This document shows, in pieces, positions 15,994-16,255 of a DNA stretch of 45,582 nt; within the stretch, counting starts at the first letter, position 1; each line of letters begins with the position of its first letter. The translations under genes and the position numbers were made by a program. Origin of the DNA: a virus. The notes beneath the pieces are model-generated. The model saw nothing but the letters and a program-made list of their open reading frames with translations. It ran no database searches and had not been told where the DNA came from. The stretch is taken from the IMG/VR virus record IMGVR_UViG_3300017991_000164. One strand, given 5' to 3'.

Positions 15994-16255
15994 ACACTCA
16001 AGATTCCCTAGACCCTGACCAACTAACCAAAACTTAGTCGACGGGCGGCCCCGGCCCTGTAAGCTCATGCGAGCGAGCTGATGACAGTCTGCGTCCTGTG
16101 GAGTATGTACATCTGGCGTGTGAGAGAGTCTCTGATGAAAGAGATCCTCAGCAGACTCTCATCAGGAATCTCGCATGAGCTTTCAAGTGAACCCCCTTGG
16201 CCGGGCCTCGACTAAGTTTTGGTTAGTTGGTCAGGGTCTGGGGAATGTTGAGTGT
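15994..16255. repeat. Approximately 262-nt long inverted repeat / giant hairpin (intergenic)
   Basis: Arm 15994-16041 pairs with 16208-16255 (48 nt, 3 mismatches, 34 nt perfect). 16061-16073 pairs with 16170-16182 (13/13). 16078-16092 pairs with 16151-16165 (14/15). No ORF is present. Confidence 0.85.

Follow-up and report, generated by a model that had tools for sequence, protein, structure and literature searches.

A giant nested hairpin between two early phage genes: a possible RNase III-type control site of probable foldback origin

The phage genome in IMG/VR virus record IMGVR_UViG_3300017991_000164 (45,582 nucleotides (nt), analysed at full length and called the window here) carries a nested inverted repeat of about 265 nt between two tiny early genes. 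The repeat was confirmed by a repeat finder and by direct reading. It is best read, with a probability of roughly 0.4, as a cis-acting double-stranded RNA (dsRNA) hairpin in the early transcript, which probably began as a foldback insertion and may act as an RNase III-type site of processing or expression control. A preliminary description of the sequence had offered three identities, namely a replication origin or cruciform, a structured non-coding RNA (ncRNA) or RNase III substrate, and an insertion resembling a transposable element of the miniature inverted-repeat type (MITE). The second is the best-fitting option and is partly supported, based on its place in a + strand unit, the asymmetry of the fold in favor of the + strand, and a basal helix that occludes a ribosome-binding site (RBS).

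The outer arms are 91% complementary over 57 nt and lie 148 nt apart according to the repeat finder, with a longest perfect run of 32 nt (16010-16041 / 16208-16239). The preliminary description counted three mismatches and 34 perfect nt in arms of 48 nt; the 48-nt arms are near-perfect as stated, but the count is two, G·G at 16002/16247 and U·G at 16009/16240, and the perfect run is 2 nt shorter. The repeat finder gives an inner pair of 35 nt (16058-16092 / 16151-16185) that is 83% complementary. Direct reading recovers both inner helices described before, one with 13 of 13 positions paired (16061-16073 / 16170-16182) and one with 14 of 15 (16078-16092 / 16151-16165), which is interrupted by a C·C at 16085/16158. 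The apical palindrome and the alternative pairing noted earlier are also present, the latter joining all eight positions of GAGAGTCT (16124-16131) to AGACTCTC (16153-16160). The in-silico fold contains about 105 base pairs (bp) in all, including a nearly perfect stem of 48-57 bp. The hairpin sequence codes only for frames of 34-64 codons that lack a Shine-Dalgarno (SD) sequence, so the earlier statement that it holds no open reading frame (ORF) is essentially right.

The folding energy, a check proposed in the preliminary description, is extreme for both RNA and DNA. The minimum free energy of the RNA hairpin is -171.1 kcal/mol on the + strand (z = -16.4) and -159.8 kcal/mol on the - strand (z = -14.2), and the DNA fold of the + strand hairpin reaches -95.2 kcal/mol (z = -17.8). 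No shuffled sequence equals the RNA or DNA values. The whole stop-to-start spacer (15965-16300, 336 nt) folds at -190.2 kcal/mol on the + strand (z = -15.6) and at -178.1 kcal/mol on the - strand. The + strand is thus better by 11-12 kcal/mol for hairpin and spacer alike; its stems contain G·U pairs at 15992/16257, 15993/16256 and 16009/16240 and no A·C mismatch. The element is the sole long local inverted repeat in the window, and 504 kb of unrelated phage loci contain just one inverted repeat of at least 24 nt, with arms of 34 nt.

The inverted repeat is real and an assembly artefact is excluded. An exact-protein look-up found the same phage in Logan assemblies SRR6963352 and SRR14699966, JGI 3300017971, and ENA ERZ27256798 and ERZ27256783, and returned nothing but identical copies of it. 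Four short contigs (JGI 3300017971, ERZ27256798, ERZ27256783 and SRR14699966) extend from a 152-amino-acid (aa) gene across the left arm and the asymmetric interior and reach into the right arm, and they are 100% identical to the window except for one single-nucleotide polymorphism (SNP) in contig L062. Since four other samples, assembled independently and with differing pipelines, give the same interior base for base, a chimeric fold-back made by the assembler has next to no probability. Such a chimera could be suspected because several short contigs end within the right arm (16216-16279) and because two long SRR6963352 contigs (k=31) stop at 16039 and resume at 16210. However, the latter breaks sit exactly where the 32-nt perfect repeat must break a k=31 graph, and the two flanks carry different genes, which fits neither fold-back read-through nor a hairpin telomere. 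In practice, short-k assemblies of this phage can be expected to break at the hairpin. A separate observation is that contigs L062, L063 and L064, from three samples and different assemblers, start within 10 nt of one another (14992, 14995 and 15001) on the downstream side of a GC-rich region; a coverage drop or a strain-variable boundary could account for the shared start.

The hairpin is located about 1 kb into the + strand block and is most likely transcribed within a polycistronic early + strand RNA, since a terminator and a promoter-like motif lie upstream (Table 1) and no promoter or terminator consensus (U-tract) was found between the hairpin and the 64-aa gene. Its placement between two SD-led early genes was correctly described before; the 58-aa gene has the SD GAAAGGAGCC and the 64-aa gene the SD GGAG. 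The promoter/operator-like motif recurs at 18331-18380 and 23907-23956, each time upstream of an SD-led + strand gene. As a motif of about 50 nt, the TTCAC-N3-GTGAA palindrome followed by GGCGTTAGACC, it has eight matches compared to 0.6 expected, with weaker copies near 10071 and 39548, and it is a candidate phage promoter plus operator.

In silico, the + strand spacer folds into a three-way junction, which the basal helix forms together with the giant hairpin (15993-16256) and a much smaller one (16257-16273). The SD and AUG of the 64-aa gene are covered by pairing between 15971-15983 and 16286-16300 with probabilities of 0.5-0.99. The anti-RBS part of this helix needs several G·U pairs and is absent from the - strand fold. 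Stems that couple an anti-SD to an SD are known from the long-distance interaction at the MS2 replicase gene and from bacterial operons, and the common feature is that sequence just past a stop codon pairs with the next SD and AUG. Unlike those stems, the two strands of the helix here are split by a self-folding insert of 265 nt, and coupling is suggested by the structure alone. A second and cleaner example occurs in the same phage at 18887-18986. The anti-SD GGCTCCTTTC, which has no other + strand copy, lies 1 nt past the stop codon at 18887-18889. Its pairing with the SD of the following gene, GAAAGGAGCC, is perfect and encloses a 13-bp hairpin (-47.6 kcal/mol, z = -5.3). This spacer looks like a translational-coupling or SD-sequestration device, and its predicted fold has the same design as the basal helix.

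Table 1. Coordinates of the hairpin and of the features around it in the window.
Feature	Position	Strand	Remark
Intrinsic-terminator-like hairpin (AGGAAAAGCCCC-GAAA-GGGGCTTTTTCT)	15681-15708	+	Closes the preceding unit after a 63-aa gene; from the fold of 15677-15793
Promoter/operator-like repeated motif (palindrome TTCAC-N3-GTGAA ... GGCGT)	15725-15770	+	Likely start of the hairpin's transcription unit
Upstream cistron, 58-aa ORFan, SD GAAAGGAGCC	15791-15967	+	
Basal helix, 5' strand (anti-RBS segment)	15971-15991	+	Begins 4 nt past the stop codon of the 58-aa gene
TTGA direct repeat, left copy	15991-15994		Possible target-site duplication
Outer inverted repeat, left arm	15994-16050	+	57 nt; perfect 16010-16041
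Inner helices, left half	16058-16092	+	13-bp and 15-bp helices with a 4x4 internal loop between them
Apical domain, 58 nt	16093-16150	+	Non-palindromic; two small alternative hairpins; includes ATGTACAT (16105-16112)
Inner helices, right half	16151-16185	+	From repeat finder and fold
Outer inverted repeat, right arm	16199-16255	+	57 nt; SNP 16227 T>G in contig L062
TTGA direct repeat, right copy	16255-16258		Possible target-site duplication
Side hairpin GAGGC-GTTCGTG-GCCTC, 5 bp	16257-16273	+	Third junction branch; tops the reconstructed empty-site hairpin
Basal helix, 3' strand	16274-16300	+	SD GGAG (16285-16288) and AUG (16298-16300) of the 64-aa gene inside
Downstream cistron, 64-aa ORFan	16298-16492	+	
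Predicted empty-site junction sequence			TGTTGGGCTTGAGGCGTTCGTGG
Element end sequences			CACTCAAGATTCCC / CACTCAACATTCCCC

A long dsRNA stem in an early mRNA would be an obligatory substrate of the host RNase III, which would cut between the two cistrons. After cleavage the upstream message would retain a protective 3' duplex and hence be stabilized, while the basal helix that sequesters the RBS would become a weaker duplex of two molecules. The 64-aa gene and the later cistrons would then be expressed on processing, or alternatively when ribosomes terminate at the upstream stop codon (translational coupling). The host is probably bacterial, judging from the bacterial-type intrinsic terminators and the sigma-like proteins of the phage. 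As to its origin, the element may have arisen by a foldback (MITE-like) insertion, or by an in-situ inverted duplication, at TTGA inside a pre-existing anti-RBS hairpin.

The T7 early mRNAs are processed by RNase III. Processing at the T7 and lambda sites separates cistrons, leaves a protective 3' duplex and alters access to the downstream RBS, and the same is predicted here. The predicted double-helical RNA, with its lower stem of 48-57 bp and the 13- and 15-bp helices, exceeds about 20 bp. The T7 R0.3-R1.3 sites, lambda sib and the N-leader sites are intercistronic stem-loops in early polycistronic transcripts, as the hairpin probably is, and its predicted helix is well above the ~20 bp that RNase III needs (PMC4858673). 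Coding as well as non-coding transcripts are cut by the enzyme in their double-helical parts, and it becomes more active in T7 infection (PMC4858673). There are clear differences as well. The hairpin is three to five times larger than the T7 and lambda sites, and its nearly perfect stem of 48-57 bp contrasts with T7 stems that are interrupted by internal loops. It is also grafted on a separate RBS-sequestering helix, it has no sequence similarity to the T7 and lambda sites, and its cleavage is a prediction.

Several features hint at an insertion. TTGA is found directly repeated at its two ends, and in-silico deletion of 15995-16258 leaves a 72-nt segment that folds as a single compact anti-RBS hairpin (-29.1 kcal/mol), similar to the anti-SD/SD spacer at 18887-18986. 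The stop-to-start spacer is then 66 nt long, which is typical for the operon (53-111 nt). This signature matches an insertion of the foldback or MITE-like kind that duplicated 4 bp of its target. The match is weak because such a repeat has an estimated chance of about 2% when freedom in placing the boundaries is allowed, and because the same bases can also just lengthen the stem (U-A, U·G, G·U and A-U).

The main rival to an RNA control site is that the palindrome is a neutral or selfish insertion with no phage function, either MITE-like and moved in trans by a host transposase or produced as an inverted duplication by template switching. This is rather unlikely. The insertion would be tolerated since its self-folding leaves undisturbed the anti-RBS hairpin in which it landed. 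It has no coding capacity, and its long, near-perfect terminal inverted repeats enclose a more degenerate interior, as would be expected. The TTGA flanks and the operon-typical, coherently folded empty site fit as well, with the reservations about chance and stem extension given above. Where the arms mismatch, they mostly differ by transversions or in blocks, and nothing in this pattern hints at selection at the RNA level. In contrast, no second copy was found in any collection searched, which argues against a classical MITE. Scans of ORFs against Pfam or PHROGs, which do not cover every ORF, revealed no transposase or integrase. In addition, every contig recovered across the site in the five samples carries the element, and no empty site was seen.

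The search for further copies, which the preliminary description had suggested, was negative throughout. The arms and inner helices have no second copy in the window, in IMG/VR (three probes) or among the cultured phages of INPHARED, and none was found in one genome each of 185,579 species (two probes) or in PLSDB plasmids. A translated search with ORFs of the element against 1.8 billion representative proteins also gave no second copy. The arms show no similarity to other parts of this phage, so no internal origin was found. The earlier suggestion of a MITE-like insertion is in keeping with the TTGA repeat, which may be a target-site duplication, and with the clean reconstructed empty site, but not with the copy number. 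Like a MITE, the element is a short (<~500 bp), transposase-less sequence bounded by terminal inverted repeats (57 nt, 91%, with 260-270 bp in all), but neither multiple copies nor a parent insertion sequence turned up in any collection.

Correia elements (CREE) of Neisseria, ERIC and RUP are MITEs that are likewise small, non-coding, intergenic, bounded by terminal inverted repeats and flanked by short direct repeats; co-transcription, which they share, is inferred here. In Correia transcripts, the inverted repeats are the places where RNase III cuts (PMC2649163, PMC10969869). Unlike the Correia-type MITEs, the element is single-copy in the data searched and has no known cognate insertion sequence or transposase. 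Its repeats are 57 nt compared to ~26 nt in Correia elements, it resides in a phage and not in a chromosome, and its putative target-site duplication of 4 bp is ambiguous. It can be assigned to neither the RNase III hairpins nor the MITEs, since it is not multi-copy and its cleavage is predicted only.

A number of observations weigh against a control site that acts as RNA. Of the main stem's three G·U pairs, two are contributed by the flanking TTGA/TTGA, and a target-site duplication is an equally good reading of these flanks. The hairpin of the reconstructed empty site reaches no more than z = -3.35. A stem that is perfect over 32 nt and near-perfect over 48-57 bp resembles a young DNA-level duplication or terminal inverted repeats, and to our knowledge a stem of this length is far beyond the need of any RNA function. 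The only polymorphism seen, 16227 T>G in L062, converts an A-U pair to A·G and is uncompensated, which also suits a selfish insertion. Finally, no homologues were found, so the RNA reading has no support from covariation.

The flanking genes are ORFans, and the databases contain no relatives close enough for covariation analysis or an empty-site comparison. The neighboring genes encode ORFans of 58-115 aa. The 58-, 64- and 106-aa neighbors have no homologue but themselves among 5.8 billion proteins, and IMG/VR contains no relative of the 152- and 197-aa neighbors. For the 115-aa protein (phrog_16527) there are 59 relatives with at most 51% identity in unrelated phages, and no comparable hairpin was found near any of them. 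Relatives of TerL are at most 59% identical. The sole relative with an upstream flank is a 41-kb genome (L073, TerL 43% identical). Its divergent region (7780-8420) contains a weak, imperfect inverted repeat of 234 nt with a (GA)n-rich center (z = -4.3), which is not homologous to the hairpin in the window. The same genome has a motif of about 40 nt, CCGGCCCGTCACGACTCCCGAGTCTTTAAGAGTTAAGAC, present twice, with one copy preceded by GGGTTCGATTCC, which resembles a tRNA T-arm.

The element could instead act at the DNA level, as a replication origin, a single-strand initiation hairpin, a protein-bound cruciform, or a recombination or packaging signal. This is improbable. The element folds as extremely in DNA as in RNA, and long near-perfect arms suit DNA symmetry, as in binding of a dimeric protein or extrusion of a hairpin from single-stranded DNA. 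The phage also encodes its own PolA and a DUF3987 protein, which is presumably primase/helicase-like. However, the GC content at the site (0.52-0.54) equals that of the surroundings, and there is no AT-rich unwinding element, iteron, or tandem or direct repeat. The skew has no inflection at the site and tracks the direction of transcription, with a local minimum at 14500-14800, where the composition is anomalous as well. The center of symmetry is a 58-nt non-palindromic segment, which disfavors cruciform extrusion from duplex DNA. The G·U-dependent asymmetry of the + strand and the RBS-occluding basal helix would be meaningless in DNA, and terS and terL are encoded on the opposite strand at a distance of 2.7-6 kb. 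The absence of an AT-rich segment, iterons and a skew switch, together with the non-palindromic center, speaks against the origin or cruciform of the preliminary description. The divergent control region at 14447-14943, which separates the - and + strand blocks, is unusually C-rich with a GC content of 0.62-0.70, a GC skew down to -0.32 and a local minimum of cumulative skew, and it is a better candidate than the hairpin for an origin or main regulatory region.

A stand-alone ncRNA released from the early transcript, for instance a small-RNA precursor, or a long dsRNA decoy that titrates RNase III or a host defence that senses RNA, is entirely speculative and very improbable. Its early position, the unusually long perfect stem and the alternative pairings in the apical domain would agree with such a role, and the phage has other structured ncRNAs, the probable YrlA-like tRNA mimics at ~21950-22215. 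On the other hand, the element lacks a promoter or terminator of its own, has no Rfam match even at E <= 10, and neither homologues nor a precedent were found.

The mimics consist of two tandem tRNA-like units (+ strand) in a permuted order of a T-arm, a 7-bp acceptor stem closed by a short loop, and a D-arm with the 5' strand of the anticodon stem. After in-silico rotation of the halves, ARAGORN calls tRNA-Ala(GGC) and tRNA-Glu(UUC) cloverleafs. The Rfam model of YrlA, the bacterial Y RNA that mimics tRNA, matches below threshold at 22091-22211 (33.3 bits compared to a gathering score of 69, E = 3e-5) and at 21964-22027 (E 0.18). The units are probably phage Y-RNA/tRNA mimics, and the 221-aa ORF at 21930-22595 is probably not a gene. 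Ro60 genes of bacteria and phages are known neighbors of YrlA RNAs (PMC4201824); the ORFs scanned here revealed no Ro60/TROVE gene. A further tRNA-like element at 22565-22697 (+) has the normal order and is called tRNA-Trp(CCA) by ARAGORN when introns are allowed; its anticodon loop carries an insertion of 48 nt, and its acceptor stem is 8 bp long. The element is missed by standard ARAGORN and by Rfam at the gathering score.

Five other identities were rejected for the hairpin. Two CUGAUGA motifs raised the possibility of a hammerhead ribozyme, but there is no Rfam 15 hit at the gathering score, and relaxing the cut-off to E <= 10 adds just two chance matches to snoRNAs, both outside the hairpin. 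For an intrinsic terminator, the stem is followed by TTGAGGCGTTCGTGG without a U-tract and a terminator scan makes no call. A protelomerase or telRL hairpin telomere is not compatible with 148 nt between the arms, an asymmetric center and differing flanks, and no such gene was seen in the ORFs scanned. A retron msr-msd was rejected since the neighbors are ORFans of 58-115 aa and none of the ORFs scanned showed a reverse-transcriptase domain. A type I toxin was dismissed because the 44-codon frame has no SD and a hydrophobic stretch of just 12 residues.

The window ends in a 50-bp terminal overlap (1-50 and 45533-45582), and it is therefore a complete, circularly assembled genome of ~45.5 kb; the break falls in a GTTGTT-rich repetitive coding region on the - strand. 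The genome is that of a tailed phage. The portal, TerL, TerS, major head and tail genes are on the - strand (156-13930 and 36353-45424). The + strand block (14944-36369) encodes a UDG-PolA fusion, DUF3987, a PD-(D/E)XK nuclease, AAA_24, a ParB-methylase and a sigma-factor-like protein. In the polymerase (32901-35183, +), UDG, exonuclease and PolA are fused, and a 1320-aa protein (36353-40315, -) contains an internal sigma-70 region 4 domain. No DNA match to the window was found in 50,697 phage records.

It is also possible, though improbable, that the element is new in kind, either a phage RNA device in which early dsRNA saturates or redirects RNase III or an RNA-sensing defence, or the first single-copy foldback element that targets phage intercistronic hairpins. 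Current knowledge is not overturned in any case, and the value of the finding is a well-defined and directly testable element. The setting is a phage lineage without cultured relatives, whose PolA shares 32% identity with its nearest cultured match. If the RNA reading is true, a single spacer would combine an anti-RBS coupling stem with a dsRNA processing site, which would be an unusually clean two-layer system of post-transcriptional control. If the insertion reading is true, self-folding palindromic elements would be able to colonize phage regulatory hairpins without breaking them, which would bear on how intergenic regions evolve.

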